IMG/VR virus record: IMGVR_UViG_3300005617_000004
Location: 45,521-109,520 of that record
Source of the DNA: a virus
Strand: one strand, 5' to 3'
DNA: 64,000 nucleotides
The notes below the pieces were generated by a model. It had not been told where the DNA came from. It searched no databases and worked only from the letters and a program-made list of their open reading frames with translations. The stretch's first letter is position 1. Every line of letters begins with the position of its first letter. Made by a program: the position numbers and the translations under genes. Below, one piece after another: positions 1 to 27,930 of the stretch.

Positions 1-470
1 TGGCGGCCGCCCTTACGGAAGGTCACGCGGATGCCGCGCTTGCTGGTGGAACGATGCGCCTTGCGGCGGGATTTGCGGCGCTTGGCCATGTGATGTCTCC
101 GGTGAGGGTTGGACTTGGTGCCGGCGGCGTCTTTGACGTCGTCGAGGTAGTAGTCGGCAAGGGCCTTGGCGACTTCCTTGCGGTCGGCGGGCGAAAAGGA
201 GCCGTACGACCCGTTGCCGGAGCCGCCATGCTCCTTGGTGTACTTCTGCGCGCCCCAGTTGGCGGCGTACAACCAACCCTTGACGGCGAGCGCAGGGTCG
301 TACGTGCCCTTCTTCATCTTCTTGGCGAGATTCTTGATGATGGGCTGTATGCTCTGTCGGTACATGTCACCGTCGTTGACGATGAATAGCTCGAGCTCGC
401 GTGCCTCGTCGCTCGGGTTGCGACGCCGGCGCCGTGACTTCCTGCGCTTCGGGGCGGCGAAGAACCCCAT
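1..470 (-). CDS. Basic core/internal protein with NP motifs, truncated by the window edge and absent from the ORF track
   Basis: ATG at 470 reads MGFFAAPKRRKSRRRRRNPSDEARELELFIVNDGDMYRQSIQPIIKNLAKKMKKGTYD...TKSNPHRRHHMAKRRKSRRK and stays open to position 1. Confidence 0.8.
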   Translation of the reverse strand, partial: MGFFAAPKRRKSRRRRRNPSDEARELELFIVNDGDMYRQSIQPIIKNLAKKMKKGTYDPALAVKGWLYAANWGAQKYTKEHGGSGNGSYGSFSPADRKEVAKALADYYLDDVKDAAGTKSNPHRRHHMAKRRKSRRKAHRSTSKRGIRVTFRKGGR

Positions 471-473
471 GGC

Positions 474-974
474 TTACTTCCGGGCCCGGCGCGCAGCGCG
501 GGCGCTGATCTTGCGGACGACGCGGCGGCTCACCTTGCGACGGCCCTTGCGGACCTTGATGCGGCCGACGCGGAACCACTTGCCCTTGCGCTTGAACACG
601 CTGCCGACGCGCTTGCCCTTCGGGGGCTTCGGCAGCTTGCGGCGACGGACGGTGTGACGGGCCTTGCGGACGCGACGACCTTTGCGGCGAGCCATGGAAC
701 GCTTCTTTCCACGGCGCTTGCCGTGCTTGCGAGGGTTGGACTTGAGCAGCCGACGCAGCGCGACGCGCTGGGCGGCGGTGAGATGGCCGGGGTTGTGGTG
801 CCAGCGCCAGAACGCGAGCCGCGAGGCGGCGGCGCCCGCAGAAACCCGGCGGCCACGACGCGCGACGCGCTTGCCGCGACGCTTCGGATTACGGCGGCGC
901 ACGATGCGCACCGTGGCGATCTCGTTCTCGTTCGGGCGGGCGTTGCGACGATAACGGCGGTAGTGGCGTCTCAT
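474..974 (-). CDS. Protamine-like Arg/Lys-rich DNA-condensing core protein
   Basis: 166 aa, extremely basic, three NP motifs (RRRNPK, HHNPG, KSNPR), lies in an operon with its neighbours. Confidence 0.7.
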   Translation of the reverse strand: MRRHYRRYRRNARPNENEIATVRIVRRRNPKRRGKRVARRGRRVSAGAAASRLAFWRWHHNPGHLTAAQRVALRRLLKSNPRKHGKRRGKKRSMARRKGRRVRKARHTVRRRKLPKPPKGKRVGSVFKRKGKWFRVGRIKVRKGRRKVSRRVVRKISARAARRARK

Positions 975-1023
975 GGGTGTGTCACCTTAGCGAACGAGGG
1001 ATTGTTTTCCAGCACATACTGCT

Positions 1024-1485
1024 TCACCGGTAACGTTCTTCGAGCGCGTTCTTGTTCTGGGCCTTCAGCAAGTAGACGGTGCCGACCGTCAACACGCCGA
1101 TGGCGGTCATGGCCAGCAGGCGCTTGTTGTCGCGCAACGTTGCCGGCAGTGCCTGCATCGTGCCGGAGAACTTGTCGCGCATCTTCGGGTTGGACGACAT
1201 CACCAGCGCAGAACCGGCAACGCCCACCACCGCACCGATCAGGGCCAGCGACTTGCCGGTGGCGTCCTGCGTCGCCTGTGCGGCGGTCAGCTTCATGGTG
1301 CCGGGCTGCTCGTTGGTGAAGATGGCACGCGCGGCCGGGTTGGCGCGCAGCAGCATCAGGCCGCCCAAGATGCCGACGGTCGCGCCGCCCAGCGACAGGA
1401 CTCGGCCCCAGGCTTCACGCTTGGCGTCGTCGGCGGTCAGCTTCAGGGTGACCGGCTTGGTGAACTCGGGAGCCAGCAGTCCCAC
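1024..1485 (-). CDS. Virion membrane protein with three hydrophobic segments
   Basis: Three hydrophobic helices separated by short basic linkers containing NP. Confidence 0.65.
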   Translation of the reverse strand: MGLLAPEFTKPVTLKLTADDAKREAWGRVLSLGGATVGILGGLMLLRANPAARAIFTNEQPGTMKLTAAQATQDATGKSLALIGAVVGVAGSALVMSSNPKMRDKFSGTMQALPATLRDNKRLLAMTAIGVLTVGTVYLLKAQNKNALEERYR

Positions 1486-1488
1486 GGG

Positions 1489-1674
1489 TTACTTCCGCTT
1501 GGACCGGCGGCGCCACAGCCAGTAGCCGCCCCCAACCAGTGCCACCATCGTCAGGTAGCGCGTAACGCCGGGTACGCTGATGCCGCGGTGAACCACCAGG
1601 GGCTTCAACGTGACCGGGTCGACTTCGGTCACCGTCTGGGTGATGCCGATCTGATCAAGGAAAGGCGTCGGCAC
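1489..1674 (-). CDS. Small tail-anchored membrane protein
   Basis: C-terminus MVALVGGGYWLW followed by RRRSKRK. Confidence 0.7.
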   Translation of the reverse strand: MPTPFLDQIGITQTVTEVDPVTLKPLVVHRGISVPGVTRYLTMVALVGGGYWLWRRRSKRK

Positions 1675-1677
1675 GGG

Positions 1678-2025
1678 TTACTTCTTGAAGATCAGGAAGC
1701 CGATGCCTGCAGCGACCGCGACGAGGCCGAGGTTCTTGCCGCTGAGCAGCGAACCGATGTCGAACGCGCCCATGCCGGGCATGTAGCCGCCAGCCAGCGC
1801 GTCCTGGTACCCGACCTGCACTTCGGTCTGGTCCATGTCCTCGACGAGGCCCAGGCCGCTGAAGCCGGGCAGGAACTCACCGCCGGCACGCGGCAGCTTG
1901 CGGGCCACCGGCGACCGCAGCCGACGATCGGCGCGGGGGTCCAGGTTCCGCGCCGCGGGCGCGCGCAGGTGCTTCACCTGCGGGGACGACAGACGGCGCG
2001 CAGGAGCGGCATTGATGGACTGCAT
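1678..2025 (-). CDS. Tail-anchored membrane protein with GLG/GMG motifs
   Basis: Contains FSGLG and MPGMG; C-terminus LGLVAVAAGIGFLIFKK. Confidence 0.7.
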   Translation of the reverse strand: MQSINAAPARRLSSPQVKHLRAPAARNLDPRADRRLRSPVARKLPRAGGEFLPGFSGLGLVEDMDQTEVQVGYQDALAGGYMPGMGAFDIGSLLSGKNLGLVAVAAGIGFLIFKK

Positions 2026-2052
2026 GGGGTTGATCCTGGACAGGGTTGCTGG

Positions 2053-2080
2053 AGGGTATGTCAGTTTGGCCGAAACTCAA
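2053..2080 (-). promoter_or_regulatory. Sigma70-like promoter
   Basis: TTGAGT-N16-TACCCT on the minus strand, upstream of the ATG at 2025. Confidence 0.45.
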
Positions 2081-2089
2081 GCGTGCGCA

Positions 2090-3241
2090 TCAACGGAAGA
2101 ACAGGAACGCGCCGATGGCGGCCGCGGTGCCGAGCAGGCCGGCAGCGCCGGTCGACTCGGCGGGCTTGCCCTGCGCCGTGTTGATGACGCCGGTAACCTG
2201 ATCGCTGGAGGTGAACGCCGCGTCGACCATCTTGTCGCGGGCCTTGAGCTCCTGTGCGCGCTGGGCGAACTGCGGATCGCCGCGCAGCCCCTTGGCGATG
2301 TTGACCCGCACCGCCTCGTGGTACTCGGGGGTCGCGGTCATCGCCAGGGTTTTGTCGCGGAACTCATCCATGTCGCGCTTGGCGGCGGCGACCAGGGACC
2401 CGGTCTTGTTGCGGATCTCGTGCACCGCCTGCTGGCCGCTGAACGTCCGGCCGATGGCGTCGATGTCTTCGGCGAACATGTGGTACGGGTTCTGCAGCTT
2501 CTTCTCGAACATCAGGGCGACGCGCTTGCTGTTGCGGTCCCAGGCGTCGTTCCACTTCTTGGCCTTGGCTTCGCCCTTCTTGTCGCCGACCAGCCGCGCA
2601 CCGGCAGCGCCGGTCTTCAGGACCGCGTCACCGACGACTTGCACCGACTTGGTCTGCGCCTTCGCGACGGTGCCGGTCAGGAACTTCTTGATACCCAGGG
2701 CGCCGAGCCCTTCGAGCAGCTGGCCGGACGCCGCCAGCTGCTCGGCAGCCGCGTACTCCTGCTCCCCCACCTGATTCTTGGCCGCTTGCACGGTGGCCTG
2801 CGTGCGGCGCCCGTAGCCTTGGATCTCGTCCTTGGCGGCCTCGATCATCTTGTGGATCTGCTTCTTGGCGATCGACCCACCGACCAGGGTGCCGATGGCA
2901 ATCAAGGCCGCCACGACCCAGCCGACGATGGGCACCACGCTGGCGGCGGTCGCTGCGGTCATGCCGGCCGCCATGGCGGCTCCGGTGGCGACCGCAACGC
3001 CCGCAGCGGTGTCGAACAGCACACCCGCCGCGACGCTGACCGCCATCTGGGCCACCGCCTGTTCGGTTGCGGCCTCGATCATGCGCTTCTTGAGCAACGC
3101 CGCTTGGTCGTTCATGCTGGTCAGGGCCAGCTGCGGTTCCTGCGCGACCTCATCGGCACCCAAGAACTCCGGCTCGAGATACCGCCGGTAGCGCGGCAGC
3201 ATCAGCGAACGGCCCGCGGGGTCGACGAGGTACTGCGGCAT
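2090..3241 (-). CDS. Helical membrane-associated virion protein, possibly for DNA entry or membrane fusion
   Basis: 383 aa with a long Ala/Val hydrophobic hairpin (VPIVGWVVAALIAIG), coiled regions, LEGLG and a C-terminal TM ending FLFFR. Confidence 0.6.
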   Translation of the reverse strand: MPQYLVDPAGRSLMLPRYRRYLEPEFLGADEVAQEPQLALTSMNDQAALLKKRMIEAATEQAVAQMAVSVAAGVLFDTAAGVAVATGAAMAAGMTAATAASVVPIVGWVVAALIAIGTLVGGSIAKKQIHKMIEAAKDEIQGYGRRTQATVQAAKNQVGEQEYAAAEQLAASGQLLEGLGALGIKKFLTGTVAKAQTKSVQVVGDAVLKTGAAGARLVGDKKGEAKAKKWNDAWDRNSKRVALMFEKKLQNPYHMFAEDIDAIGRTFSGQQAVHEIRNKTGSLVAAAKRDMDEFRDKTLAMTATPEYHEAVRVNIAKGLRGDPQFAQRAQELKARDKMVDAAFTSSDQVTGVINTAQGKPAESTGAAGLLGTAAAIGAFLFFR

Positions 3242-3681
3242 TACTTGCGCCGCAGGAACAGGTACAGGGCGCCGAGGGCGACCGCGCCGCCGAGCACGAG
3301 CGCCGGGGTCGGGATGGTGGTGCCGCCGACCTGAAGGCCGCCACCAGCGTCCTGCGCGGTGATCTGAGCTTGTGCGGCGGCAGCGGCGGCCTTGACCGCG
3401 GCGGCTTCCGCACGCTTCGCGTCCTCTTCCTTGGTGCGGGCGCGCTTCTCGTCCATCTGCTGCTGACGCAGGGTGTAGGCGGTCGACCCGACGGTGGTCA
3501 GTGCTTGGATCAGGGGCCCGATCGACTCGACCCAGCCGAGGTCTTCACCGGGCAGGTTCGACGGGGCTTCAATGTTGCCGCGTCGGATGATCAGGCCCGT
3601 GTTGGTGGTCGGCCACACGCTGTCGCCGCCATGACGTGACAGGGACCGCGTCATGAACGCCGGGGTATTGCGATAGCCCAT
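3241..3681 (-). CDS. Tail-anchored membrane protein
   Basis: C-terminus LVLGGAVALGALYLFLRRK. Confidence 0.7.
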   Translation of the reverse strand: MGYRNTPAFMTRSLSRHGGDSVWPTTNTGLIIRRGNIEAPSNLPGEDLGWVESIGPLIQALTTVGSTAYTLRQQQMDEKRARTKEEDAKRAEAAAVKAAAAAAQAQITAQDAGGGLQVGGTTIPTPALVLGGAVALGALYLFLRRK

Positions 3682-3717
3682 GGTGCGCAGTGTGCGCAGT
3701 TATGGAGCAAAGGCAAG

Positions 3718-4077
3718 CTACCCCTCGGGGTATTCCTCGTTCTCCTCCTTCAGCACCTCGTCAATGTTCTCGTCCGCACCGGCTTCGGTGTCGACCGCGT
3801 CGCTCAGGTCCGAGTCGAAGGTCGGGTTGAGCTCCTGCTCGTTGGCGGCCGCGCCCTGGGGTGGCGGCCGCTCACCCTCGACGTCCACCGCTTGGTAGCA
3901 GGCGGCGCACTCGATGATCGCGTCGCCGTTCTTGTCCTGGACGGTGATGGCGGTGCCACGAGGCACTTGGGTCGGCGGCAGGGCTGCCCGCAGGCCGCAG
4001 ATGCAGACCCATTCGATACGGGTGTCGGGCGGCGGCATGCGCCGGACGGGCTTATCCAGCAGGTGGTAGATCGTCAT
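3718..4077 (-). CDS. Zn-ribbon protein with acidic tail
   Basis: CICG ... CAAC and a Glu/Asp-rich C-terminus. Confidence 0.55.
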   Translation of the reverse strand: MTIYHLLDKPVRRMPPPDTRIEWVCICGLRAALPPTQVPRGTAITVQDKNGDAIIECAACYQAVDVEGERPPPQGAAANEQELNPTFDSDLSDAVDTEAGADENIDEVLKEENEEYPEG

Positions 4078-4208
4078 GGTCGTCCTTCAGGAACAGGTCG
4101 CGGATGAGCCGCAGGGTGGTGTACATGCAGGCGTACAGCATCGCCAGGGTGGCGCCGGCGCACAGGATGGTCGTCACCAGCTGCGGGCTGATGTTGGGCG
4201 GTACGCGG

Positions 4209-4475
4209 TCAATCACGGTGGTAATGCTCGCCGCGCGGCCGCAGCTTGGCCAGGGTGGTGACGTCCTTGGCGATCGACGGGTCGTCCAGATACGCGCACA
4301 GCGCACGCTTCGTGGCGTCGTCGCGCTTGCTTTTCTCGTACTCGCCGCGCAGCCAATCGAGGTATAGCAGGCCGGCGTCGGTGCGGGCGATGTCGTCCAG
4401 CGCGGCGCCTTTGTAGCGGCCGAAGGTCAGGACGAAGCGGGTGGCTTCGGCGTAGGTCGTGGCGGTGGCGGGCAC
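4209..4475 (-). CDS. Small FGKYKG-motif protein (DUF3820 / ExoX C-terminal-like)
   Basis: LTFGRYKG...YLDWL. Confidence 0.6.
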   Translation of the reverse strand: MPATATTYAEATRFVLTFGRYKGAALDDIARTDAGLLYLDWLRGEYEKSKRDDATKRALCAYLDDPSIAKDVTTLAKLRPRGEHYHRD

Positions 4476-4484
4476 GTAGTGTTC

Positions 4485-5249
4485 CTAGGGGATTTCGCGG
4501 TGGAGATAACCGTTGAGAACGCAGCGGACCCAATGGCCGCTGCAGTGCGCTTCGTCGGCCAGCTGCATTTTCACCATGAAGTTCTGCATCGAAGGCAAGA
4601 ACAGCGGCGTACAGAGGGCCGCACGGTAGTTGTCGTCGCGGGCCTTGTACAACGACTCGAACGGAAGGTGGAGATGCCACTTCTCGCCGATCTGCACGAT
4701 GATCTCGGTCACCTTGCCGTGGTAGCGGTTAGTCAGCCCCAAGGTGTCTGCGCCGGAAGACAACTGGAACTCCAATTCCCACACGGTGTGCTTCTTCGGC
4801 CAGTAGAGTTGGCCGATGGTCGTCGGATAGGAACGCCCGTCTTCTGGGCGCGAGCGTCGCGGTTGGCCCCACTCGGTCTCTCCCGGGTGCGTGATATCAT
4901 CCGCGCGGCCGCCGCTGAAGAAGTAGAGCGTCTTGGTTCCTCGCTCTACTGGAACGGTATCCCACAACGGCTGCCATATAGTCTCCAGCTTGATATCTCC
5001 GCGCAGAGAATCCTTCCACTGGGTCAGGAGGCATCCGCAGTTGCCGGGGCCCCCTTTCGGAGGTGGAAACCGCTTCGGGTCCGGGAAGGCTCGCTGACGC
5101 TTCGGGTTGAGCGACGTCACGACGTCGGTTTCGGTCAGTGGCGCCGGGAGGCGGAACTTCGGTTCCTTGGCCAGCCGAGCGCGCTTCTCGGCTTTCTGTT
5201 GTGCTGGGGTGAGAGGAGGGCAGTCGTTTCGTTGGAGATAGCGGACCAT
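4485..5249 (-). CDS. Putative single jelly-roll capsid-protein paralogue
   Basis: Beta-rich C-terminal domain: IWQPLWDT..LYFF..GQL..IGEK..PLFLPSMQNFMV..LNGYLHRE. Confidence 0.4.
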   Translation of the reverse strand: MVRYLQRNDCPPLTPAQQKAEKRARLAKEPKFRLPAPLTETDVVTSLNPKRQRAFPDPKRFPPPKGGPGNCGCLLTQWKDSLRGDIKLETIWQPLWDTVPVERGTKTLYFFSGGRADDITHPGETEWGQPRRSRPEDGRSYPTTIGQLYWPKKHTVWELEFQLSSGADTLGLTNRYHGKVTEIIVQIGEKWHLHLPFESLYKARDDNYRAALCTPLFLPSMQNFMVKMQLADEAHCSGHWVRCVLNGYLHREIP

Positions 5250-5251
5250 GA

Positions 5252-5890
5252 TCAACTCCGGTAGATGGGAAAGCCACCCACAGGGCAGCCGTAGACGGCG
5301 GTATCGAAGGCGAAGGTGGGTTGGCCGGCGGACCACGCCTTGAGCTGCTTGGTGCTGATCTTCCAGCCCGGCATCGGCTCGTTCGGCTTGCCATTGCGCG
5401 ACGCGCTGCGGTAGTTCATCACCTGCAGTCGCTCGGTCGCAACGTAGTCGCGCACCGCCTCGTACGGCACGACGATGACCCGGTCGACGCCGACGGCCAT
5501 CGCACGGCGCAGGGCAAACAGGTCAGCGGAGTCCGACGCGCGGATGGTGTGGATCCAGAACACGTAGTGGAGTCGCACCCGGTTGCGGCGCACGAACCGC
5601 TCCGCGCGGTCCAGGATGTGCTCGTACAGGATGCCGTTCTTGCCCTTGCCGATCGACTTGCATTCCAGGTAATGCTTGCTGTCGACCTCGAGGTCGGGGC
5701 AGATGCCGGCACGGCCATCGGTGCACATGCGGCGGCCGCCGATCACCTTCGACACCGCCTCCTCGACGAAGTCACCGGTCGCGTTGCGACACTGGGCCCA
5801 GCTGTAGAACTCGACGTTGCCGACCCAGTCCCAGATGGGCAGCTGTGCACCGTCTTGCCGGCAGGCGGGGAGGCGGAGGGGCTCTACCAC
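5252..5890 (-). CDS. PD-(D/E)XK family nuclease
   Basis: E...ICPDLEVDSKHYLECKS motif; probable GTG start at 5890. Confidence 0.6.
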   Translation of the reverse strand: MVEPLRLPACRQDGAQLPIWDWVGNVEFYSWAQCRNATGDFVEEAVSKVIGGRRMCTDGRAGICPDLEVDSKHYLECKSIGKGKNGILYEHILDRAERFVRRNRVRLHYVFWIHTIRASDSADLFALRRAMAVGVDRVIVVPYEAVRDYVATERLQVMNYRSASRNGKPNEPMPGWKISTKQLKAWSAGQPTFAFDTAVYGCPVGGFPIYRS

Positions 5891-6051
5891 ACGTCGCCCC
5901 ACTCGAAGCTGCACGCCCACAGGTTGATCGCAAGGTGCCAGCCGTCGTAGTATTCGCGGTAGATGCCCGGTGTGACGCCGGGAAACCAGTAGAAGCGGAA
6001 CGTACCGTGGCGCACGAACCGCCAGAAGGAGGGCGTCTCGTTGGGGCTCAC
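5884..6051 (-). CDS. Small Trp-rich hypothetical protein (55 aa, not in the ORF track)
   Basis: GTG overlaps the upstream stop; reads MSPNETPSFWRFVRHG...FEWGDVW. Confidence 0.45.
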   Translation of the reverse strand: MSPNETPSFWRFVRHGTFRFYWFPGVTPGIYREYYDGWHLAINLWACSFEWGDVW

Positions 6052-6356
6052 CGCTGCCACCATGGCTTCTTACCCATCCATGGCGGGCGTCGGTCACCGC
6101 GGCGCTGCGTTGCATCTGGCGCTAGCGGGTACATCTCAAGTATGAGGGAGGGACGAGGCGTATCCCGCATGCGCTGCTCAAGCCGCCGCAATTCCTCTTC
6201 GAGTGGTGGAGGCACGTCATCCGCCGCGATCAACGCCGCTTCCTGCTCGGTGGCGCGGCGAAGGACGCCGGCCCGCATCAACTCCTCCAGAGTCTTGTAC
6301 TCTGGTTTCCAGGCGCCGGCGTTGGCGATCGCATAGACGACGCCGTCGGGGCCCAT
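6048..6356 (-). CDS. Hypothetical protein
   Basis: Translationally coupled to its neighbours. Confidence 0.55.
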   Translation of the reverse strand: MGPDGVVYAIANAGAWKPEYKTLEELMRAGVLRRATEQEAALIAADDVPPPLEEELRRLEQRMRDTPRPSLILEMYPLAPDATQRRGDRRPPWMGKKPWWQR

Positions 6357-6733
6357 TAGAACGGGGCGCTTTCAAGCGCCTGGACCTTCTCCACCCGGAG
6401 CTCGGCCTTGATGATCGGCATCAGCCACTTGCGGTAGATCGGAGATCCGAAGTTCTTGGCCCGCTGCTTGCGCCCCTCGCCGATCGCGCGGAGTGCGCGT
6501 ATCGTCATGATCCGCTTTACCCGGGTATCGGGTTTCCGGTGCCGCCGAACGCGGGCCGTCAGGTGCGCCGCGCACAGCTTCTGGTACCACTCCGGGTTCT
6601 CGCTGATCACCGTCCGGACCGCAGCCCCGACGTTCACTTCACGCTCGGCTGGGGTGAGGATCACCTCCAGCCGGTTCCGCTCCAACTCATCCGCCATCGC
6701 CAGGGCCATCCGTTGGATTGGTGTCTGCCGCAT
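6356..6733 (-). CDS. Basic hypothetical protein
   Basis: Coupled ORF, 125 aa. Confidence 0.6.
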   Translation of the reverse strand: MRQTPIQRMALAMADELERNRLEVILTPAEREVNVGAAVRTVISENPEWYQKLCAAHLTARVRRHRKPDTRVKRIMTIRALRAIGEGRKQRAKNFGSPIYRKWLMPIIKAELRVEKVQALESAPF

Positions 6734-7160: not shown

Positions 7161-7210
7161 GGGCGTACTAATTCCTGGGGTAATTCGGCCGTAATTCCGG
7201 GCCCTGAGAA

Positions 7211-7578: not shown

Positions 7579-7621
7579 GGAGATGTACATCTACGGCAAG
7601 ATGTACGAAAGCAAGCCATTG

Positions 7622-19806: not shown

Positions 19807-19808
19807 TC

Positions 19809-22628
19809 ATGCCTACCGCAGCTGTTATCGCCGCACAGAACGCCTCCATTACCGCCTCGGCCAGCGGCTCTGGTCTCGAGGATGAGGTCAATGCGCAGCT
19901 TGCGACGCTGCTGAGCCACATCGTGATGAGCCTGCAGATCAGCTCTGCTCAAGCGTCGTCGAAGCAGAACCATCTGCAGGCGGTCATCACCTATCAGGAC
20001 GGCGCAGCAACGATCGCCACGCCATTCGTGCTGAAGCTGTTCACTGGCCGCTCACTCGCCGACGCCGGTGCCGCGGTAGACGCGTTCATGGCGGCGAACA
20101 CCACGTATTTCTTCTCGCCGGTGAGCTTCAACGTCTCCGACGAGCCTCGCGCCGCGAAGCCGGTCGTCCTGGGCCTGCTGTACAACACCGACTACGCCGA
20201 TGGGCTGTCCCACTTCGGTGTCGGCGGATCCGGTGGCGGTGGTGGCGCTCCGAGCGGCCCCGCAGGTGGGGACCTCAGCGGCACCTACCCGGACCCGGAC
20301 GTCAGCGAAGGCCACATCCTGCCGACCGGCGCCGTGTCCACGCGGCTGCTGACCGAGTACCTCGCCGAGCCCTACAACACCTTGAACTTCGGCGGCTACG
20401 CCGACGGAGCGACGCACGCGCTCAGCGCCCCGGCCGCCGCCATCCTGAATGCGCAGTACGCGTCGATCGGGTTCCAGGGCATCTACGCCGCTGCGGCTGG
20501 CGACAGCGCCGACTGGGCGGCATTGCAGATCGCGCTGTACAAGTCGGCCTACACCGGCGCCGTAGTGCAGATCCCGATCGGCACGTCGGTCGTCAACCGT
20601 AACCTGACCTTGTACTGGGAGACGCCCAACCCCAACACCGCGCAGCCGGACCGGCCGATCGTATGCATCGTGCAGGGGTCGGGCCGCGGTTCGATCATCA
20701 AGGCCTACAACATCGGTGCAGGCCGCGGTGTATTCGAGATGTTGGGATCCACCAACCAGGACGCCGCCAACGTCAGCTTCCGTGACTTCACGGTCCTGCA
20801 GGACGTCTCGTGCAACGTCGGCTCCTACGCCTTCCGAGTCGGTGACGCGTGGTGCGGTTGGGACATGCACCGCGTGATCATGTACTGCGCCGGCGGCCTG
20901 CTGATGCGGGTAGCCAGCTCCTCGAGCTACGCGCAGCTGTGCACCACCATCCGCCAGTGTCAGATTTGGACCAACTACAACCAGACCTGGGGCATCTGGA
21001 GCGCTGTCGAGGTGTACGCCATCCAGGTGGAGACCGGTGGCGCGTTCTGGGACCAAGTCCTGATCCTGTCGTGTGCCATCAACGGCTGCTGCAACATCCG
21101 CGCGCACGTCATCAAGTTCATGCAGTGCAACATGTGGACGCAGTCTCAGCGTCCGCTGGGCACGTTCGGCTCCAACTGGAACATCGCGACCCACCTGGGA
21201 CGCCTCGACGCCGACACCTGCTACTTCGAGGATCATGCTCGGGCAATCGTGTGCACGTCCGACGACGCACCAATCGAGAACGTCACCATCCGCGGCTGCT
21301 GGTTCAGTGGTGTCCAGAACTCGGGCGGCCCGGCGGCCGACTACGCTATCGTCTGCGCGCCGAACCTGTGGGCCTTCGGTCCGATCACCATCGCCGACTG
21401 CGCTTTCCGCGACCAGCTGTACACCGGCGCCTCGGTGTTCGTGCCCAGCGTCTCGGCGTTCCTGTACAACAACTCCCGCATCGGTGTCACCTATACTGGC
21501 CTGCCTATCTCCGTGCTGGGCGACAGCGCGTCGCGTATCGTCAGGCTCGACCGCGACACGGCTGCGGCCTTCGACACGTTCGAGTTCGGCGACAATGTCC
21601 GCGCGCTATTCACCGAAGGCATCGTTGGACCGCTGGCCATCATCGAAGACACGGTCACGCAGGCCAGCGTCACGCTCACTAATCCCGATACCGCAGTCAG
21701 CAACGCCGCTAGCGCGGCTTTGATCGCGGCCTGCGGCGTCGCCCAGAGCCGTCAGATAGTGTTCGGACCGGCTCACGCGTCCTTCCCCAACCAAGTCTGG
21801 CTGTTCTCGACGGTCACCGGTGCCGCGCTGGTGCTCGGTGTCGGCGGCGCGAGCCGCGTTCAAGTCGACGACAATCAGGTGGCCGTCGCGCGCAGCTACG
21901 ACGGCAACTACGGGGTTACCGCATCGAACCCGCACGCCGGTTCCAACGCCTACGCGTTCCTGACCGCGTCCAACGGCACCAACAACATATCCATGGTCGC
22001 TTTCGGCACGGGCCATGCACTCGCAGGCCAGGGCTGGCTGTACACCGGGTCAGCGACGTTCCTGATCCTGGGCGTCGCCGGCGTCGAAGTGGCGCGTCTC
22101 GACTACAGCACGTTGCGCATGAAGATGCTCAACTACTCGGTGGTCGGCGGCGTCGGTTTCGAGGCGACCGCCTCGACTGCTGTTGGCAACACCGGGGCTG
22201 CGGTCTCCATCGTTCCGACCGGCGTCGGCGGCGTGGTGGTGCCGGCTGGCGTCTTCAAGGCCGGCAGCGGCCTGGAGATCGAGGCTTCCGGCTTCATCGA
22301 GACGGTCGGGGCCGAGAACATCACCTTCGCTATCATCATCCAGGGGCAGACGCTTGCCACCGTGGTGATCCCCGTGGCGGGCCTCGTCTCCTTCGTCGGG
22401 TACTTCCTGAAGATGTCGGTGGCGGTGCGCACGGCGGGCGCCGGCGGTACGCTCATCGGCCAGGGATATCTCATGTTCAACAACACCGCGCTGAACATCG
22501 TCGCCGGCTCGACGCAGGCGCTCGACACGACCGCGACTGCCCTGGTCGACGTGACGGTCCAGCACTCGGTGGTTGACCCCGGCAACGTGGTGTACACCAC
22601 CAACTACACCCAGAAGATCAAAAGCTGA
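19809..22628 (+). CDS. Spike protein 2 with a pectate-lyase-like beta-helix (putative depolymerase)
   Basis: Shared N-terminal anchor domain, PSGPAGGDLSGTYP linker, DWAALQIAL..GAVVQIPIG start motif and beta-helix repeats. Confidence 0.75.
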   Translation: MPTAAVIAAQNASITASASGSGLEDEVNAQLATLLSHIVMSLQISSAQASSKQNHLQAVITYQDGAATIATPFVLKLFTGRSLADAGAAVDAFMAANTTYFFSPVSFNVSDEPRAAKPVVLGLLYNTDYADGLSHFGVGGSGGGGGAPSGPAGGDLSGTYPDPDVSEGHILPTGAVSTRLLTEYLAEPYNTLNFGGYADGATHALSAPAAAILNAQYASIGFQGIYAAAAGDSADWAALQIALYKSAYTGAVVQIPIGTSVVNRNLTLYWETPNPNTAQPDRPIVCIVQGSGRGSIIKAYNIGAGRGVFEMLGSTNQDAANVSFRDFTVLQDVSCNVGSYAFRVGDAWCGWDMHRVIMYCAGGLLMRVASSSSYAQLCTTIRQCQIWTNYNQTWGIWSAVEVYAIQVETGGAFWDQVLILSCAINGCCNIRAHVIKFMQCNMWTQSQRPLGTFGSNWNIATHLGRLDADTCYFEDHARAIVCTSDDAPIENVTIRGCWFSGVQNSGGPAADYAIVCAPNLWAFGPITIADCAFRDQLYTGASVFVPSVSAFLYNNSRIGVTYTGLPISVLGDSASRIVRLDRDTAAAFDTFEFGDNVRALFTEGIVGPLAIIEDTVTQASVTLTNPDTAVSNAASAALIAACGVAQSRQIVFGPAHASFPNQVWLFSTVTGAALVLGVGGASRVQVDDNQVAVARSYDGNYGVTASNPHAGSNAYAFLTASNGTNNISMVAFGTGHALAGQGWLYTGSATFLILGVAGVEVARLDYSTLRMKMLNYSVVGGVGFEATASTAVGNTGAAVSIVPTGVGGVVVPAGVFKAGSGLEIEASGFIETVGAENITFAIIIQGQTLATVVIPVAGLVSFVGYFLKMSVAVRTAGAGGTLIGQGYLMFNNTALNIVAGSTQALDTTATALVDVTVQHSVVDPGNVVYTTNYTQKIKS

Positions 22629-23209
22629 TGAGCGAACCCCTGTGGGCCATCGCCGCTGTCGCCCTGCTCGGCGTGACCTTCTGGTTCGCGCATGCCCCAG
22701 CCCCGTCGATCGCGGGCGACGTTGCGGTCGACACCTCTACCCACTTCCACCTCTGGCGAGGCGCCAACGATGCTGACGGTACGTATCAGGTGCGCGATGG
22801 CGCTGATCAGCTGGTGTCTGCTTTTCACGTGCGGTACAACCGGGTGTCAGAAGTCCCGCTCGACCGCCCCGCTGACGCCGCCCACTACCGCGGCCACTAC
22901 GACCGCGACTACTACGCCGCCGAGCCCGCTTTCGACATCGGCGTCTGGACCGGCTACGCCCGGTTCGGCGGCGACAACCGCCACTGGCAGTCCGGCGTCC
23001 GGTGCAGCCCCCTCCGCCTCCTGTACGGCACCATCGGCACCGATCTCGCCCTCTCGCAAGACGCAGCCGGTGCCGGCATCTCCCTCTACCCGCCGCCCGA
23101 CTATTTCGGCGCCCCCTGGGAGCATTTCGGATTGGGCGCTTGGTACATGGCTCCTTTTGATGGCGGCAGCCCTAGCTGGGTGTACGGCCTGTCATTCTCT
23201 GCTCACTAA
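22628..23209 (+). CDS. N-terminally anchored protein with amphipathic beta-strand C-terminus (lysis/spanin-like?)
   Basis: N-terminal TM; FGLGAWY..WVYGLSFSAH. Confidence 0.5.
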   Translation: MSEPLWAIAAVALLGVTFWFAHAPAPSIAGDVAVDTSTHFHLWRGANDADGTYQVRDGADQLVSAFHVRYNRVSEVPLDRPADAAHYRGHYDRDYYAAEPAFDIGVWTGYARFGGDNRHWQSGVRCSPLRLLYGTIGTDLALSQDAAGAGISLYPPPDYFGAPWEHFGLGAWYMAPFDGGSPSWVYGLSFSAH

Positions 23210-23222: not shown

Positions 23223-23573
23223 ATGAACTTCGGCGCCGCGTTCTCCGCTCTGTTCACCAAGGCCAAGGATGAGGTCGCCAAGGCCGACATCCCGCACCGC
23301 AACTGGTCATCCCTGCGATGGCTCGGCTTGCTGGCGGTGGTCGCGCTGGTGGTGTACAACGCCGCCTCGCACCTGCTGGCCGACGCGTCTCTGCAGCTGA
23401 TCGCCCACTGCTTCGTCATCTGGCTGGTGTGCAACACGGTGACCCGCGCAGTCACCACCGCCGCCAACGCCTGGAGCCGTGTGCGCATCACCGAAATCCT
23501 CGACAAGGACAACGAGATCACCCCCGGTGAGCAAGCGATCCTCGAGAAGCTGGATGCGCAGCCGGACAAGTAG
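23223..23573 (+). CDS. Two-TM holin-like protein
   Basis: Two hydrophobic helices and a charged C-terminus. Confidence 0.5.
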   Translation: MNFGAAFSALFTKAKDEVAKADIPHRNWSSLRWLGLLAVVALVVYNAASHLLADASLQLIAHCFVIWLVCNTVTRAVTTAANAWSRVRITEILDKDNEITPGEQAILEKLDAQPDK

Positions 23574-23634: not shown

Positions 23635-24033
23635 ATGGCACGCTCGTTCATCACTTCCGAGAAGCCCGGCTCTGCCGCCTTCATCCTGGACATCAACACC
23701 CAGCTGGCGCTGCTGACCGACCCCACCATCCGTGGTATCGAGTTCAACATCGACGAGCGCCAGCGGCGCAACCAGCGCCAGTACAGCGGCGTGATCAGCT
23801 ACGACACCGCCGGCGCGTCCCTGGCGACCCCGTTCCTGCTGAGCGTGCTGGAGGCCGGCACCATGGCGGAGCTCAACACCGCCCTGGCAGCGTTCATCGC
23901 AGCCAACCCGACCTACTTCTACTCGCACTCGGTCTACAAGTTCCTGTACACCGGCGCCCGCGATCCCCGCTACATCGCCCTGACGCTGTACAACACGACC
24001 GGCGGCGCCGACGCCAACTACCTGCCCTTCTAA
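23635..24033 (+). CDS. Stand-alone copy of the fibre N-terminal anchor domain
   Basis: ATPFLL..AFIAANPTYFYS..LYNT matches the N-termini of both fibres. Confidence 0.75.
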   Translation: MARSFITSEKPGSAAFILDINTQLALLTDPTIRGIEFNIDERQRRNQRQYSGVISYDTAGASLATPFLLSVLEAGTMAELNTALAAFIAANPTYFYSHSVYKFLYTGARDPRYIALTLYNTTGGADANYLPF

Positions 24034-24046: not shown

Positions 24047-24613
24047 ATGGCTGACAACACCGCTGCCTTCATGGCCCTGGACCGCGAGTCACAGGGTGCC
24101 ATCGCGCCCTACCAGTCTGGCGTCGACATGACCGGTGCGCGCTCCTCGATGCTGGCTCTGCTGAGCAAGATCAACGTGATGTTCCCCTGGGCGCCTCCAG
24201 GCCTGTCGTCGATCGGCTCGCGGGTGTTCGACCTCGGCGCCTTCCCCCGTCTGCGCGCGTACCTGCCCGGTGGCGGAGCGCGGCCTGCGTGGCTGGCCGA
24301 CGAAGCCAAGTACCAGCAGTGGCGCAAGATGATCGAGCAGCTGTACCGACCGATCGACACGGCGTTCCTGAAGCAGAACTCGGCCCTCACCGCGGCGGAG
24401 ACCCAGGCGGCGGCCAACAACGTAGCCTTCTGGGACGACGTCTACAAGACGACCGACACCATCAACATGGCGAGCCCGCTGCGCATCGGCATGAACCTGC
24501 GCGAGTCGTACGAGAGCAGCCCGAAGACCTTCACCGCCGTCGTGGCTGCCGGAGCGCTGGCAGTGACCGGCATCTTCGCCTACTTCATGTTCCGCAAGCC
24601 GCGCCGCAAGTAA
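24047..24613 (+). CDS. Tail-anchored membrane protein
   Basis: C-terminus VVAAGALAVTGIFAYFMFRKPRRK. Confidence 0.7.
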   Translation: MADNTAAFMALDRESQGAIAPYQSGVDMTGARSSMLALLSKINVMFPWAPPGLSSIGSRVFDLGAFPRLRAYLPGGGARPAWLADEAKYQQWRKMIEQLYRPIDTAFLKQNSALTAAETQAAANNVAFWDDVYKTTDTINMASPLRIGMNLRESYESSPKTFTAVVAAGALAVTGIFAYFMFRKPRRK

Positions 24614-24622
24614 CCGCGACCC

Positions 24623-25216
24623 ATGCCGAACGCGTACCGCTTCATTGAGGCCTGCGCGCTTCTGCCGTTGCTGTACGTCTCCGCGGCCGAGCCCAACACG
24701 ATCCTGTGCCTGGGTACCCACGCCGAGAAGCTCGCCGCGGATTGCCTGCGCTGGCGTGACGTCGCCAAAGTCTACCTGCTGTCGACCCCCATCATCCTGC
24801 GGGACAAACGGATCGAAGTGAACCTGCCCGCCGCCGGCAGCTGTGCAGCTGTGCTGACGTCGCCCGACGAACCCGCCGAGATCCACACGGCCGCGCTCAA
24901 GGCCGACGGAGTGTTCTGCGCCTCCACCATGAACCAGATCGCCGTCCCCGCCATGCTGCGGCAGGTGCGCGGCTTGTTCCCCCGTGCGGTCACCCCCTGG
25001 CGCGATTACCTGCCCGAGCCGATCTTCGGCGCGCTGGCGTCGCCGCGTGGCGTGCCCACCCGCAAACGCTCACCGCCGACCAGCGCGCGGCACCTGAGCG
25101 ACAAGTACCTGCCCTTCCTGTTCACCTTCGCCGCTGACGAAACCCCACTGGTTTTCGGGCCTCCGGCGGATAAGAAAGCTGCTGTCCCCGAGGTGCCGCG
25201 TGCCCAACCTGCTTGA
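24623..25216 (+). CDS. Degenerate spermidine-synthase-like protein
   Basis: Y..E...PLL..EPNTILCLG..ALKADGVF..LFP..PW..FGALAS; the GGGDG motif is missing. Confidence 0.45.
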   Translation: MPNAYRFIEACALLPLLYVSAAEPNTILCLGTHAEKLAADCLRWRDVAKVYLLSTPIILRDKRIEVNLPAAGSCAAVLTSPDEPAEIHTAALKADGVFCASTMNQIAVPAMLRQVRGLFPRAVTPWRDYLPEPIFGALASPRGVPTRKRSPPTSARHLSDKYLPFLFTFAADETPLVFGPPADKKAAVPEVPRAQPA

Positions 25217-25628
25217 CGTTCTCCGCGGCGCGACGTCGTCGATGCCGAACCTGATCAACACGGTGGTGCCGGCAACGCCTCGCCGCCGCGCGGACGTGGC
25301 AGTGCACGACGGCTACGCGGTGGCCGACGCCTGGGTGAAGGCAAAGCCAGCCGTATTCGTCGCCGGGCTCGCCGGCATGGCCTTGTCGCTCGGTGCCCTG
25401 TACCTGCGCCGCGGCAAGGGCGTCGAGTCGATCGCCATGTACGCGGGCACGTTCGCGGCCTCCGCTGGCGTGGCCTGGGTCGCTCGGCCCGGCGCCAATG
25501 GTGCCGTGTCACCGGGTGCGTCACCCAACACCGACAAGGTACTGGCATGGCTCGACGCGCGCGCCGCCAAGCTCGACAAGACCGAGCCCGGATGGCAGGA
25601 AGCCGCCGAGCGGCGGATGCTGAGCTGA
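25200..25628 (+). CDS. Two-TM membrane protein
   Basis: FVAGLAGMALSLGALYL and MYAGTFAASAGVAWV. Confidence 0.6.
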   Translation: MPNLLDVLRGATSSMPNLINTVVPATPRRRADVAVHDGYAVADAWVKAKPAVFVAGLAGMALSLGALYLRRGKGVESIAMYAGTFAASAGVAWVARPGANGAVSPGASPNTDKVLAWLDARAAKLDKTEPGWQEAAERRMLS

Positions 25629-25630
25629 GC

Positions 25631-26044
25631 GTGGCCCGGTTCGGCAAGTCCTTTCGGATTCGGTCACCGGTCGGCCCGGTCTACCGCGTCGATGGCGCGA
25701 AGGTGCGCCGCAAGCACACCGACTTCATCGGTGGAGGCCATGCTTTGGTCTACGGCTTCGTTCCGGGCGAAGAAGTCTGGGTCGAGAAGATGGCCGGCGG
25801 CGCCGTCGAAGAACGCTACCTGCTCGCGCATGAGATGGTCGAGATCGCCCTGATGCGGATCCTCGGCTGGAAGTACGACAGGGCGCACGCAGCAGCCAAC
25901 CGCGCCGAACGGCGGCTCCGCAAGGACGACTGCCCGCTCAAGGTCTTCACCGCAGTCCTGCGGCGCCATATGCCCGGCCGCTATCAGCTGGACGTCGATC
26001 GGGTTGCACTGCAATTCCACAAGGCCTATAAGGGCTACCGATGA
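25631..26044 (+). CDS. Putative zincin-like metallopeptidase
   Basis: DFIGGGH..EVWVE..LLAHEMVE..YDRAH; GTG start at 25631. Confidence 0.5.
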   Translation: MARFGKSFRIRSPVGPVYRVDGAKVRRKHTDFIGGGHALVYGFVPGEEVWVEKMAGGAVEERYLLAHEMVEIALMRILGWKYDRAHAAANRAERRLRKDDCPLKVFTAVLRRHMPGRYQLDVDRVALQFHKAYKGYR

Positions 26045-26196: not shown

Positions 26197-26388
26197 AGCA
26201 CCCCCGCCGCTTGCGCACGCCCACCCGCACCATCGTGTCGACCAACCCGCCCCGGGTCACCCGCGCAGTCGAACCGATCCCCAAGACCTGGGACACCCCA
26301 CCCCGGCCACCCGCCGGCAAGCGTCGTTGACCCGCCTGCCCCCGTGGCTAGGCTATGCACACTCGCTCAACCGTACCTGAGGCACACC

Positions 26389-26730
26389 ATGGACCAGCCC
26401 GACCCGCACGACCAGCTGCTGCTCACCGAGCGGCCGACCACGATCGTGACCCAGCACACCGCGGCCCACGACTCCATGCCGTCCCCCTACGGCTCGCAGG
26501 AGGATGAGGAAGCCCTGTTCTCGCAGGTCGGCGATGACGCCGGCTTCGCCCAGAACGCGGCCGCCAGCATCAACACCCGCAGCCAGACCGAAGACCGCGT
26601 CCCCGCGGTCATGCGCGAAGGCCCGGGACCCGGCGCGATCTCGATCATCCCGGCCGGCATGGACGGCAAGACGGTCGCCATCCTGGCGGGCCTCGGTCTC
26701 GGCATCGCGTACCTGCTGACCCGGAAGTAA
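26389..26730 (+). CDS. Tail-anchored membrane protein
   Basis: C-terminus VAILAGLGLGIAYLLTRK; TTGACC-N16-TAGGCT promoter upstream. Confidence 0.7.
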   Translation: MDQPDPHDQLLLTERPTTIVTQHTAAHDSMPSPYGSQEDEEALFSQVGDDAGFAQNAAASINTRSQTEDRVPAVMREGPGPGAISIIPAGMDGKTVAILAGLGLGIAYLLTRK

Positions 26731-26734
26731 TTCC

Positions 26735-26977
26735 GTGGACAACTACCTGAGCGGCACGTACCTGGGTGACCTGTCGGACGACATGGGGGATGATCTCAGC
26801 GCCGACAACGCCACCACCGCGTTGTCGCCCGCGCGCGGCGAGCGCCCGCCCGCCGAGTACGTGACGCTGCCCGGCGGCATCATGATGGAGAAGAAGGCCT
26901 TCTATCTCGCCGTCGCCGTCCTGGCCGCCATCGCCATCTACCTCGCAACCCGCAAGAAGAAATCCTCGAGCGAATGA
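26735..26977 (+). CDS. Tail-anchored membrane protein
   Basis: C-terminus FYLAVAVLAAIAIYLATRKKK. Confidence 0.7.
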   Translation: MDNYLSGTYLGDLSDDMGDDLSADNATTALSPARGERPPAEYVTLPGGIMMEKKAFYLAVAVLAAIAIYLATRKKKSSSE

Positions 26978-27327
26978 CGCAGCCGTTCGTCAACCAGCAG
27001 CAAATGCTCCAGGGTCTCGGCGCGGTGCTGTCGACCCCGCTGGCACGTGGCGCGATGAAATACTGGTGGGTGACGGTTCCGCTGGGCGGCCTGGGCTGGT
27101 ACTACTGGCAGCAGCGCGCGAAGGAAGGCAAGGCCAACGTCGGCCAGCTGGTGCACGACATGGTGCCCGCTGTCGGTCTGGTGGCCACCGCCTTGACCCT
27201 CAACGCCATCCTGGCGGCCAAGGAAGCCGGCAAGCCCGCACCCGTCTCCGTGCTGCCCGCTGGCCCCATCAGGGACGCTGACTTCACTGCCCCCGGTCCC
27301 GTCTCGGCCGACATCGCTTCGTCGTAA
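26974..27327 (+). CDS. Membrane protein with LQGLG motif
   Basis: YWWVTVPLGGLGWYYW plus a second hydrophobic helix. Confidence 0.65.
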   Translation: MTQPFVNQQQMLQGLGAVLSTPLARGAMKYWWVTVPLGGLGWYYWQQRAKEGKANVGQLVHDMVPAVGLVATALTLNAILAAKEAGKPAPVSVLPAGPIRDADFTAPGPVSADIASS

Positions 27328-27337
27328 GGACCACGCC

Positions 27338-27718
27338 ATGCAGCTCCGCCGCCAGTCGCTCACCAACGACGCCCACCCTTCGATCGACCCCGTCACCAGC
27401 TCCGGCCGCGGCACCGCGCACCGGGTCGACGGCAACGGCCTCGAAGCCGACCGCCGCAACGTGATCTCGGTCGCCAAGGGCCGCAAGATCGACGGCGCGC
27501 CGATCACCGAGGAGAAGACCGACCTCGTCACCGTGGGCCGCGCCCAGGTGCTGGCCCGCAGCGGCAACGACGCCGGGCAGCACGAGGAAGAGTGGGAAGG
27601 CGATGACGGTAACTTCGACGAGCTCGCGGCCGCCGACGTGTCCTCGACGGTCAAGACCACCCACGTGCTGACGCTGGTCGGCGTGGCGGCACTCCTGTGG
27701 TGGGCGTGGAAGAAGTAA
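27338..27718 (+). CDS. Tail-anchored membrane protein
   Basis: C-terminus VLTLVGVAALLWWAWKK. Confidence 0.7.
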   Translation: MQLRRQSLTNDAHPSIDPVTSSGRGTAHRVDGNGLEADRRNVISVAKGRKIDGAPITEEKTDLVTVGRAQVLARSGNDAGQHEEEWEGDDGNFDELAAADVSSTVKTTHVLTLVGVAALLWWAWKK

Positions 27719-27930
27719 TGGACACCCAACAGCTGCTGGCGAGCGCCCAAGAACTCCTGAACGAGGGCAAGAACAACGCGTCGATGCAGTTCCTGGTCGA
27801 AGGTGGCGACATAGCCAAGGCCATGAAGAGCTGCCAGGAGAGTCATCGGCTGCCCGAGCTGAGCATCGAGCGCGCGTTGTACGTCGGCGCCTACATGGAC
27901 ACGATCCACCGACTCTCGAAGGCGAAGTAA
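27718..27930 (+). CDS. Hypothetical protein
   Basis: TAATG-coupled to the upstream gene. Confidence 0.55.
   Translation: MDTQQLLASAQELLNEGKNNASMQFLVEGGDIAKAMKSCQESHRLPELSIERALYVGAYMDTIHRLSKAK

Follow-up and report, generated by a model that had tools for sequence, protein, structure and literature searches.

Which kind of virion is encoded by a bacterial virus genome of 109 kb in which no gene of a tailed phage can be detected? The question is raised by the record IMGVR_UViG_3300005617_000004 (109,520 bp). Bases 45521-109520 of this record (64,000 nucleotides, hereafter the window; positions are those of the window unless given as genome positions) had been the subject of a sequence-only reading, which took positions 1-27930 for the structural gene set of an unusually large tailless virus with an internal membrane. 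To our knowledge, the tailless viruses with membranes described so far from bacteria and archaea have genomes of ~9-44 kb, and large genomes among jelly-roll viruses are known from eukaryotic viruses only; the present genome is two to ten times larger than those of described phages of such build. Our analysis indicates that positions 1-27930, together with ~10 kb upstream, are probably the virion module of a tailless, membrane-containing jelly-roll virus of ~109 kb. The gene-based part of the earlier interpretation is supported, and from it we infer the internal membrane and the icosahedral shell.

The record was treated as a whole genome, flank included, because its first 110 bases recur as its last 110 and CheckV rates it as 100% complete; the source collection places it in the direct-terminal-repeat class. 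It is the circularly permuted or terminally redundant 109-kb genome of a bacterial virus. At a G+C content of 64.7%, raw lists of open reading frames (ORFs) are useless (the 418 raw ORFs of the window were uninformative), and genes were therefore called with a codon score trained on long ORFs with high G+C at third codon positions (GC3). This yielded 185 genes over the whole record, with a coding density of 91% under the standard code. The virion block comprises g064-g118 (genome 35.5-73.5 kb; about -10 kb to 27.9 kb in the window). Here TAA is the stop codon of 26 of 55 genes, as against 9 of the 130 genes elsewhere, where TGA prevails, and this shift would agree with strong expression late in infection or with a block of separate ancestry.

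Genes of tailed phages were sought among the predicted proteins and in all six frames. Pfam and PHROG scans of ~80 proteins, which included all those of at least 279 amino acids (aa) and left most small proteins uncovered, detected no terminase, portal, HK97 capsid, tape-measure, sheath, tube or tail protein and no FtsK/HerA ATPase; they named replication and accessory genes only, plus two glycosyltransferases and a transglutaminase core. Six-frame searches of the whole record, which read through stop codons and gave signals in control genomes, returned no match to TerL_ATPase (PF03354), Terminase_6N (PF03237), Phage_portal (PF04860; further portal families were covered through the protein scans), FtsK_SpoIIIE (PF01580) or, at the sensitivity of hidden Markov models (HMMs), Phage_capsid (PF05065). 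A six-frame motif scan found a single canonical Walker A, in the helicase g027. The absence of tailed-phage hallmarks noticed earlier in the 64 kb of the window thus extends to the whole 109.5-kb record: the 45.5-kb flank, proposed as the place to look for a terminase, a portal and an HK97-fold capsid, encodes none of the three by HMM searches of proteins and of six frames, and the FtsK/HerA (A32-like) packaging ATPase proposed as their counterpart was not found either. In related records the hallmark-family searches covered one 34-kb fragment, with 0 matches.

We propose g092 (7705-8205, + strand; 166 aa) as the main shell protein. It is the best-conserved protein of the block, with 46-72% identity across all related loci; the GC3 of its gene is 0.98, and no other gene of the block has a higher codon score per residue. 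Homologs of g092 were found in 119 clusters, and a profile of 58 orthologs searched against 1.84 billion representatives recovered 1183 clusters. Among the best 150 of the 1183, a handful of orthologs of 166-226 aa came first, followed by 137 proteins of 220-380 aa with two matches each, which suggests that g092 is a single-barrel member of a mostly double-barrel family. Downstream of an N-terminal helix, g092 displays eight evenly spaced hydrophobic strands, and this pattern and the family architecture would be compatible with a jelly roll. Both of the small chromosomal elements described below encode a protein of 292-300 aa in which the domain occurs in tandem (E-values of 1e-9 to 1e-16 per domain).

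Complex prediction with three copies of a two-barrel member of this family returned a ring-shaped trimer with a score of 0.89, compared to 0.01 for the best of three controls. The runs had at least 78% of contacts in common, with a partner predicted local distance difference test (pLDDT) of at least 83. In calibration, the mark for this tool was reached by 20 of 30 solved pairs and by 1 of 23 single chains, a guide that is rough here given the custom alignment and the three copies. In the model, barrel 2 of each copy contacts barrel 1 of the next. A pseudo-hexameric capsomer would have such geometry, although fibre tips, if trimeric, might pass this test as well. The 137 two-barrel members had no match to a Pfam capsid family and none to PHROGs; four marginal Pfam matches (E = 2e-4 to 3e-3, one or two members each) were to unrelated domains.

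The sequence-only reading had grouped the gene at 7705 with those at 4485, 8252, 8951 and 9465 as candidate single beta-sandwich proteins. Comparisons by hhalign and profile search show that this is not one family: g092 is not paralogous to g093-g095 (8252, 8951 and 9465) but belongs to its separate, mostly double-barrel family, and the 4485 family is likewise not paralogous to g093-g095. Matches of the double-barrel family to g064 (E = 0.02) and to g093 (E = 0.008) were not significant. The beta-sandwich assignment itself stands by modeling for 8252, by paralogy for 8951 and 9465, and for 4485 as a member of a second family, and at 7705 it would fit the strand pattern. Both candidate families that were folded, g093 and the g064 family, gave jelly rolls.

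The model of g093 (8252-8938, +; AlphaFold2, pLDDT 77, 41 homologs) comprises N-terminal helices and an eight-stranded single jelly roll, and 45 homologs of the protein were identified. Against the PDB, VIA-align matched the model to HHIV-2 (6h82_b; Z 9.8, root-mean-square deviation (rmsd) 3.3 over 113 aa) and to SPV1 (6oj0_Z; Z 9.6, rmsd 2.1 over 106 aa), with GOLD domains and satellite-virus coats close behind. As modeled, g093 is a jelly roll, but its structural ranking is non-discriminating, and we propose that it is a capsid-associated or vertex subunit. Its paralog g094 (8951-9475, +) was recognized by hhalign (probability 98%, E = 3e-14) and by the A1 profile (E = 3.5e-9), and the C-terminal half of g095 (9465-10493, +; 342 aa) is paralogous to both (hhalign probability 94% and 90%).

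The second family has three paralogs in the record, of which g064 and g066 lie upstream of the window and g085 (4485-5255, -) within it; g085 joins an N-terminal extension to the jelly-roll domain of the family (blastp 4e-10; A2 profile E = 2.1e-15). The simplest member, g064, was modeled as an all-beta protein (pLDDT 79, predicted template modeling score 0.73, 68 homologs). In Foldseek the sole match of this family model below E = 0.001 was SPV1 6oj0_Z (1.5e-4; the second match was at 5.7e-3), and in VIA-align SPV1 6oj0_T ranked first (Z 7.9 over 142 residues, the whole model), followed by SPMV, HHIV-2 (Z 7.0), HCIV-1 (6.8), STIV A223, P23-77 VP17 (6.4), VP16 and FLiP. This list consists mostly of shell proteins of membrane-containing viruses, at modest scores. 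Proteins of HHIV-2, HCIV-1 and P23-77 were matched by the two modeled families at Z 5.4-9.8, as a likeness of fold alone. The third paralog, g066 (genome 37300-38349, +, on the strand opposite to its neighbors), combines a BrnA-like ribbon-helix-helix and a CxxC...CxxC zinc ribbon with the jelly-roll domain, and this fusion ties a capsid-like barrel to a DNA-binding head.

All three capsid-like families have many homologs, repeatedly on contigs of 80-115 kb. Sequence searches of the PDB with g085, the A2 and A3 profiles, g105 and g099 returned nothing meaningful. The ESM Atlas returned unnamed clusters, and its leads to PM2 P2_N/P2_C (0.78) and DUF6143 (0.80) were at chance level and were not used. 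Nothing was found by megablast of window positions 1-20000 against known phages, or by tblastn searches of 50,697 phage records for which g105, g064, g092 and two double-barrel proteins were the queries.

The small membrane proteins claimed by the sequence-only reading are concentrated in the virion block. Proteins with a C-terminal transmembrane (TM) helix and a short basic tail, referred to here as tail-anchored, are encoded by 12 of the 55 block genes and by 0 of the 130 genes elsewhere (Fisher p = 1.9e-7). Eight of the 12 fall within positions 1-27930, as claimed, and the quoted endings were found; the other four lie just upstream of the window. On the minus strand they include g078 (1489-1674; a TM helix followed by WRRRSKRK), g079 (1678-2025; ending FLIFKK and conserved in relatives) and g081 (3241-3681; LFLRRK), and on the plus strand g109 (24047-24613; FRKPRRK), g114 (26389-26730; LLTRK) and g117 (27338-27718; WAWKK). 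The small protein g115 (26735-26977, +) also has a C-terminal TM helix and ends TRKKK. Longer than these, g080 (2090-3241, -; 383 aa) contains a long helical region in addition to two internal TM helices and its C-terminal anchor, ends FLFFR and has no Pfam or PHROG match; from these sequence features, it is a possible membrane scaffold or size-determining protein. The C-terminal anchor is retained in homologs of g072 and g080, in small proteins of integrated relatives, and in gp34, gp41 and gp53 of the Salisaeta phage SSIP-1.

The protamine-like proteins noticed earlier were confirmed as well. Four neighboring genes, g073-g076, encode proteins with 23-43% Lys + Arg and isoelectric points (pI) of 11.5-12, in which an NP-basic motif ("NPRRR") is repeated and the NP dipeptide occurs 5-10x above expectation. 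Two of them lie in the window: g076 (474-974, -; 166 aa, 43% Lys + Arg, pI 12) is protamine-like, and g075 (214 aa, pI 11.8) is an Arg/Lys-rich, core-type protein with a short globular middle, the 3' part of its gene occupying 1-470 (-) and its start lying upstream, as do the other two genes. Both g075 and g076 are conserved in a relative from a metagenome-assembled genome (MAG).

This relative was binned in a Planctomycetota MAG from a bog, in which two contigs (62 kb and 29 kb) show synteny to the genome as a whole and share 64 of its 185 proteins; the host probably belongs to the Planctomycetota. A profile search detected the g064 family in 6 of 401 Planctomycetota genomes, and two of the matches lie inside complete chromosomes of 9.3 and 9.5 Mb. 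The two chromosomal blocks are compact, low in G+C like the host, and near a serine recombinase. They encode, in order, a transglutaminase-core protein, a protein of 430-615 aa, two tail-anchored proteins, a Gly/Tyr-repeat membrane protein that by eye resembles g065, a g064-like protein, the 292-300-aa protein with two g092 domains, a protein of ~185 aa, and a 277-287-aa ATPase with a zinc ribbon and a P-loop. We read these blocks as integrated elements of about 25 kb, an approximate size as their ends are unmapped. Since elements of ~25 kb hold the core module and are too small for head and tail genes, the virion module exists on its own. An 83-kb contig of the lineage is binned in a MAG labeled as the cyanobacterium Okeania sp., and the g092 homolog there is named 'DUF930 domain-containing protein'; the binning and the protein name alike look erroneous.

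In the ATPase of the small elements (L047:5803-6636 and L048:5783-6646, both -), a zinc ribbon at the N terminus is combined with a RecA/KaiC-like P-loop domain, and a KNR(F/H)G motif is present; the match of this ATPase to Pox_A32 was not significant (E = 0.02). Among predicted viral structures, the g064 model came closest to a 211-aa entry, and this match led us to examine SSIP-1. The N-terminal domain of g072 matches the SSIP-1 structural protein gp34 (BLASTP, 32% identity over 107 aa, E = 6e-15; phmmer, 3.4e-14), and the small-element ATPase matches SSIP-1 gp40 (E = 2e-9), for which a role as packaging ATPase is predicted (PMC4124505). From its sequence, the small-element ATPase, like gp40, recalls RadA/Sms and not the FtsK/HerA packaging ATPases. 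The core module of the ~25-kb Planctomycetota elements and these gp34 and gp40 matches bear out the earlier suggestion of a poorly described jelly-roll lineage.

The gene content, two jelly-roll folds (as models), the homologies and the lack of detectable tailed-phage genes or a packaging ATPase are established here. Collectively, they support, in silico, a new large-genome branch of tailless membrane-containing jelly-roll phages that is distantly tied to SSIP-1. Several observations weigh against this interpretation. The jelly-roll nature of g092, the proposed main shell protein, is read from strand pattern and family architecture only. The top matches of both jelly-roll models have modest structural scores (Z 7.9-9.8), and jelly rolls of tailed-phage cement proteins and fibre tips rank alongside them for g093 (KHP40, Z 9.6; Pam1, Z 9.1). 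Clusters of both families in the ESM Atlas are labeled Uroviricota where they are labeled, although the label is automatic. The resemblance to SSIP-1 thins out among the candidate capsid proteins: gp47 matches the double-barrel profile weakly (E = 1.5e-5 in a 31-protein set; hhalign probability 33%, 36 columns), gp46 matches the g064 profile at a non-significant E = 0.03, and gp45 does not match that profile. Lastly, SSIP-1 and the small relatives have the ATPase that is missing here, and the assembly route may therefore differ, or the motor may be unrecognizable.

The last point opens an alternative account in which the virus is likewise tailless and built of jelly rolls but fills a preformed, membrane-lined shell by means of a motor, either an unrecognized ATPase or a recruited helicase (g027, g123 or the SF3-like replicase module), with the Arg-rich proteins merely neutralizing charge. 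The well-studied PRD1-type viruses all use a packaging ATPase, SSIP-1 and the small relatives encode a gp40-type ATPase beside their capsid genes, and three helicase-type ATPases are present in the genome. However, these three sit in replication blocks outside the virion block, the gp40-type profile found nothing in six frames of the genome, the MAG relative or the related loci, and FtsK_SpoIIIE was negative in six frames of the record. The four adjacent basic proteins would, moreover, suit a nucleoprotein core of the type found in SPV1, a virus without a packaging ATPase (PMC8459092). We consider this account unlikely as a whole. On the narrower matter of assembly, the negative gp40-type search favors a mode in which the Arg-rich proteins condense the DNA and the particle assembles around this core, as in SPV1 (PMC8459092); in our judgment, condensation-type assembly and a hidden or borrowed motor would be evenly balanced.

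A second alternative is that the genome belongs to a highly divergent member of the Caudoviricetes, with hallmark genes beyond HMM detection and jelly rolls that serve as cement, decoration or receptor-binding parts. Large tailed phages typically have features such as those seen here (a length of 109 kb, 33 tRNAs, PolA, helicases, methylases), related clusters carry the automatic Uroviricota labels, and the jelly rolls of tailed-phage cement and fibre tips score nearly as well as membrane-virus capsids. Yet few conserved proteins of at least 350 aa remain for the hallmark roles. Those without an assigned role are g072 (transglutaminase core, long acidic tail, TM anchor), g122, g080, g036 (half Ala/Pro-rich), g073 (Arg-rich), g009 (absent from the MAG relative), g102 and the fibres g099 and g105. 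The 650-aa g122 is a low-complexity, Gln/Ala/Pro-rich, helical protein without a P-loop and, on these grounds, is unlikely to be a terminase or a portal. The six-frame HMM searches were negative, there is no canonical Walker A beyond that of a helicase, the ~25-kb elements that hold the core module leave too little room for head and tail genes, and the sequence link leads to SSIP-1, which is tailless. A tailed phage is therefore improbable.

An element with no regular shell, be it plasmid-like, vesicle-borne or a pleomorphic enveloped virus with jelly-roll surface lectins, would account for the missing packaging ATPase, the many membrane proteins, the serine recombinase and the glycosyltransferases, but is very improbable given the adjacent conserved jelly-roll families in fixed order across distant relatives, the predicted ring-like trimer of a double-barrel relative, as in shell capsomers, the common fibre anchor domain, the sequence link to SSIP-1 structural proteins, and the Pfam and PHROG scans, which, with most small proteins uncovered, named no conjugation or partition gene save for a weak ParB-like match (E = 0.009).

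Returning to a tailless jelly-roll virus with a membrane, we infer an icosahedral particle with a membrane, assembled around a nucleoprotein core and not by ATP-driven filling of an empty shell, in which the proteins would have the following roles. The outer shell would consist of small jelly-roll proteins, with g092 forming the facets and the g064/g066/g085 family and g093-g095 serving as penton, peripentonal, linking or under-shell subunits. Beneath the shell would lie a lipid layer with about a dozen C-terminally anchored proteins; these may insert post-translationally into a lipid patch, their large N-terminal parts facing the shell and their basic tails facing the DNA, which would be condensed by the Arg-rich NPRRR proteins. 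The two fibres may dock at the vertices through their common N-terminal domain, enzymes of glycosyltransferase families 2 and 4 (GT2 and GT4) may glycosylate the Thr-rich Cys protein g096 or the shell, and g072 may be a virion-borne entry enzyme that cuts cell wall or protein. A fuller version of this account, namely that this is the first bacterial jelly-roll membrane lineage to have grown to 95-115 kb, with 33 tRNAs and its own replicase, that in growing it lost the packaging ATPase which its relatives of 25-44 kb retain, that it wraps membrane and shell around NPRRR-condensed DNA, and that its shell protein is a one-barrel form of a two-barrel protein, is conceivable, but we hold it only tentatively and lean against all of its parts being correct.

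The remaining genes of the block include the two fibres claimed by the sequence-only reading, which were confirmed as proteins with a common N-terminal domain. An anchor domain of ~115 aa is common to g099 (13786-16296, +; 836 aa, with internal repeats), g105 (19809-22628, +; 939 aa, a fibre or spike) and g108 (23635-24033, +; 132 aa), in which it stands alone (blastp 3e-24 and 5e-11; g105 and g099 are 47% identical over 117 aa); g099 and g105 are Gly/Ala/Thr-rich. Between the fibre genes, g102 (16962-18440, +; 492 aa) is beta-rich, has no Pfam or PHROG match and is absent from the syntenic MAG contigs. It was rejected as a double jelly-roll capsid candidate because it is missing from the syntenic relative, and it is probably a variable host-recognition part.

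A glycosylation cluster separates the capsid-like genes from the fibres. The Cys-rich g096 (10490-11248, +) has a conserved N-terminal part and a long, mucin-like Thr/Ser run, to which its sub-threshold, composition-driven Mucin match is due, and is a likely glycosylation substrate. It is followed by a family-2 glycosyltransferase (g097; 11258-12007, +; PF00535, E = 4.8e-12) and by g098 (12049-13758, +), which joins an N-terminal membrane domain to a GT1/GT4-type glycosyltransferase (PF00534 and PF13692, just below the cut-off); g098 adjoins the capsid genes across the lineage, with 35-45% identity in 7 loci. Further membrane proteins are the small g077 (1024-1485, -; two to three TM helices, 52-54% identity in locus L004 and in the MAG) and those at 22628-23209, 23223-23573 and 26974-27327. 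Among the late membrane-protein genes are also g110 (24623-25216, +; 57% identity in the MAG relative) and g112 (25592-26044, +; 55% identity in the MAG relative, with an HExxE-type motif). The conserved g086 (5252-5890, -; 212 aa) has 54% identity in relatives and no Pfam match. Upstream of the window, the 855-aa g072 combines its transglutaminase core with an acidic tail and a C-terminal TM anchor.

Outside the block, the named genes are the SF1 helicase g027, the SNF2 helicase g123, a 1632-aa PolA fusion with an SF3-like module, a methylase, a phosphoesterase and a serine recombinase. The last of these (genome 23449-24411, +; Resolvase domain, E = 1.8e-22) has a conserved counterpart in the MAG relative; that a serine recombinase also adjoins the small integrated elements hints at integration or dimer resolution. 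Upstream of the window, at genome 26.9-34.6 kb, 33 tRNA genes form an array that serves most amino acids and in which the HNH endonuclease-like genes g054 and g055 are embedded; in the gene call this stretch appeared as a gap of 4.5 kb, 'non-coding' and lower in G+C. One tRNA, labeled tRNA-Pyl by ARAGORN, has a CUA anticodon and thus resembles an amber suppressor. TAG is the stop codon of 21 of the 185 genes, and in five of these the next gene follows in the same frame 3-45 nt on, as g084 follows g085, where ~7 such cases are expected by chance. Such pairs (4209-5255, 36093-36464/35388-36089 and 43185-43391/42735-43175, all -) could give read-through fusions by means of the CUA tRNA, although their count is at chance level. 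A recoding of TAG that hides long genes is ruled out by the 21 TAG stops, the chance-level number of in-frame successors and the coding density of 91%.

If the proposed lineage is confirmed, it would bear on several questions. The small size of other jelly-roll lineages was described as a puzzle in a recent review (PMC13598248), and a bacterial lineage of such build at ~100 kb, represented by dozens of contigs from soil, bog and other metagenomes, would alter this picture of size. Its capsid-like families are without names yet widespread, with more than 1000 clusters for g092 and more than 100 for g064. Neither the 137 double-barrel members nor the jelly-roll proteins of the window matched a capsid family in Pfam, and PHROGs likewise gave none, so that virus-detection pipelines built on profile libraries likely miss or mislabel such viruses. 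The absence of the ATPase set against the presence of protamine-like proteins offers a testable contrast in assembly between close structural relatives. Lastly, one- and two-barrel forms within one family bear on the origin of double jelly-roll capsid proteins; if true, the transition from single to double jelly roll, or its reversal, would fall within one sequence family.

Among known systems, SSIP-1 is the one tied to this genome by sequence. It is a cultured, tailless, icosahedral phage (T=49, ~100 nm) with an internal membrane and a circular 44-kb double-stranded DNA (dsDNA) genome; two single-barrel capsid proteins have been proposed for it, and almost no relatives of its genome were present in databases (PMC6260650, PMC6356626, PMC4958249). 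The two viruses have in common the transglutaminase core of gp34 and g072, in both cases with a C-terminal TM anchor, a circular genome, and several structural proteins that end in a TM helix. The gene order is also similar (flanks compared by eye), with a Gly/Tyr-repeat membrane protein, beta proteins of ~210 aa and a protein of ~256 aa that is a weak double-barrel match. Unlike SSIP-1, the present genome is 2.5x larger, lacks a gp40-type ATPase, adds protamine-like proteins, 33 tRNAs and its own replicase, and encodes a single-barrel g092 where SSIP-1 (gp47) and the small elements have proteins of ~260-300 aa.

By structure, the closest likeness is to SPV1 of the Portogloboviridae, a virus with a T=43 shell and A-form DNA. 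SPV1 chains (6OJ0, Z and T) are the best matches of the g064 model, and SPV1 is tied with HHIV-2 for g093; basic proteins are encoded in the present genome, and no packaging ATPase was found in it. SPV1 has an outer shell of single jelly rolls, under-shell proteins, a lipid layer and circular dsDNA condensed by a basic protein, and encodes a glycosyltransferase and many small membrane proteins but no packaging ATPase (PMC8459092). It differs in its hyperthermophilic archaeal host and 20-kb genome, there is no sequence similarity, and the Z scores are only 7.9-9.6.

The viruses with vertical single beta-barrels (Sphaerolipoviridae, Simuloviridae and Matshushitaviridae, including SH1, HHIV-2, HCIV-1, SNJ1 and P23-77) would resemble the present virus, as proposed here, in their adjacent small jelly-roll capsid genes and in an internal membrane with many small proteins, and their capsid proteins are among the top structural matches here. 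In contrast, their genomes are 16-31 kb, a conserved packaging ATPase gene, without a counterpart here, precedes their two capsid genes, and there is no sequence similarity. The double jelly-roll phages (Tectiviridae PRD1 and Bam35, Corticoviridae PM2, Autolykiviridae and FLiP) have genomes of 9-15 kb and capsid Pfam models that are unmatched here, and g092 has one barrel. However, the relatives of g092 have two barrels and are predicted to form ring trimers, and they are encoded beside a single-barrel protein and an ATPase, an arrangement classic for the double jelly-roll phages.

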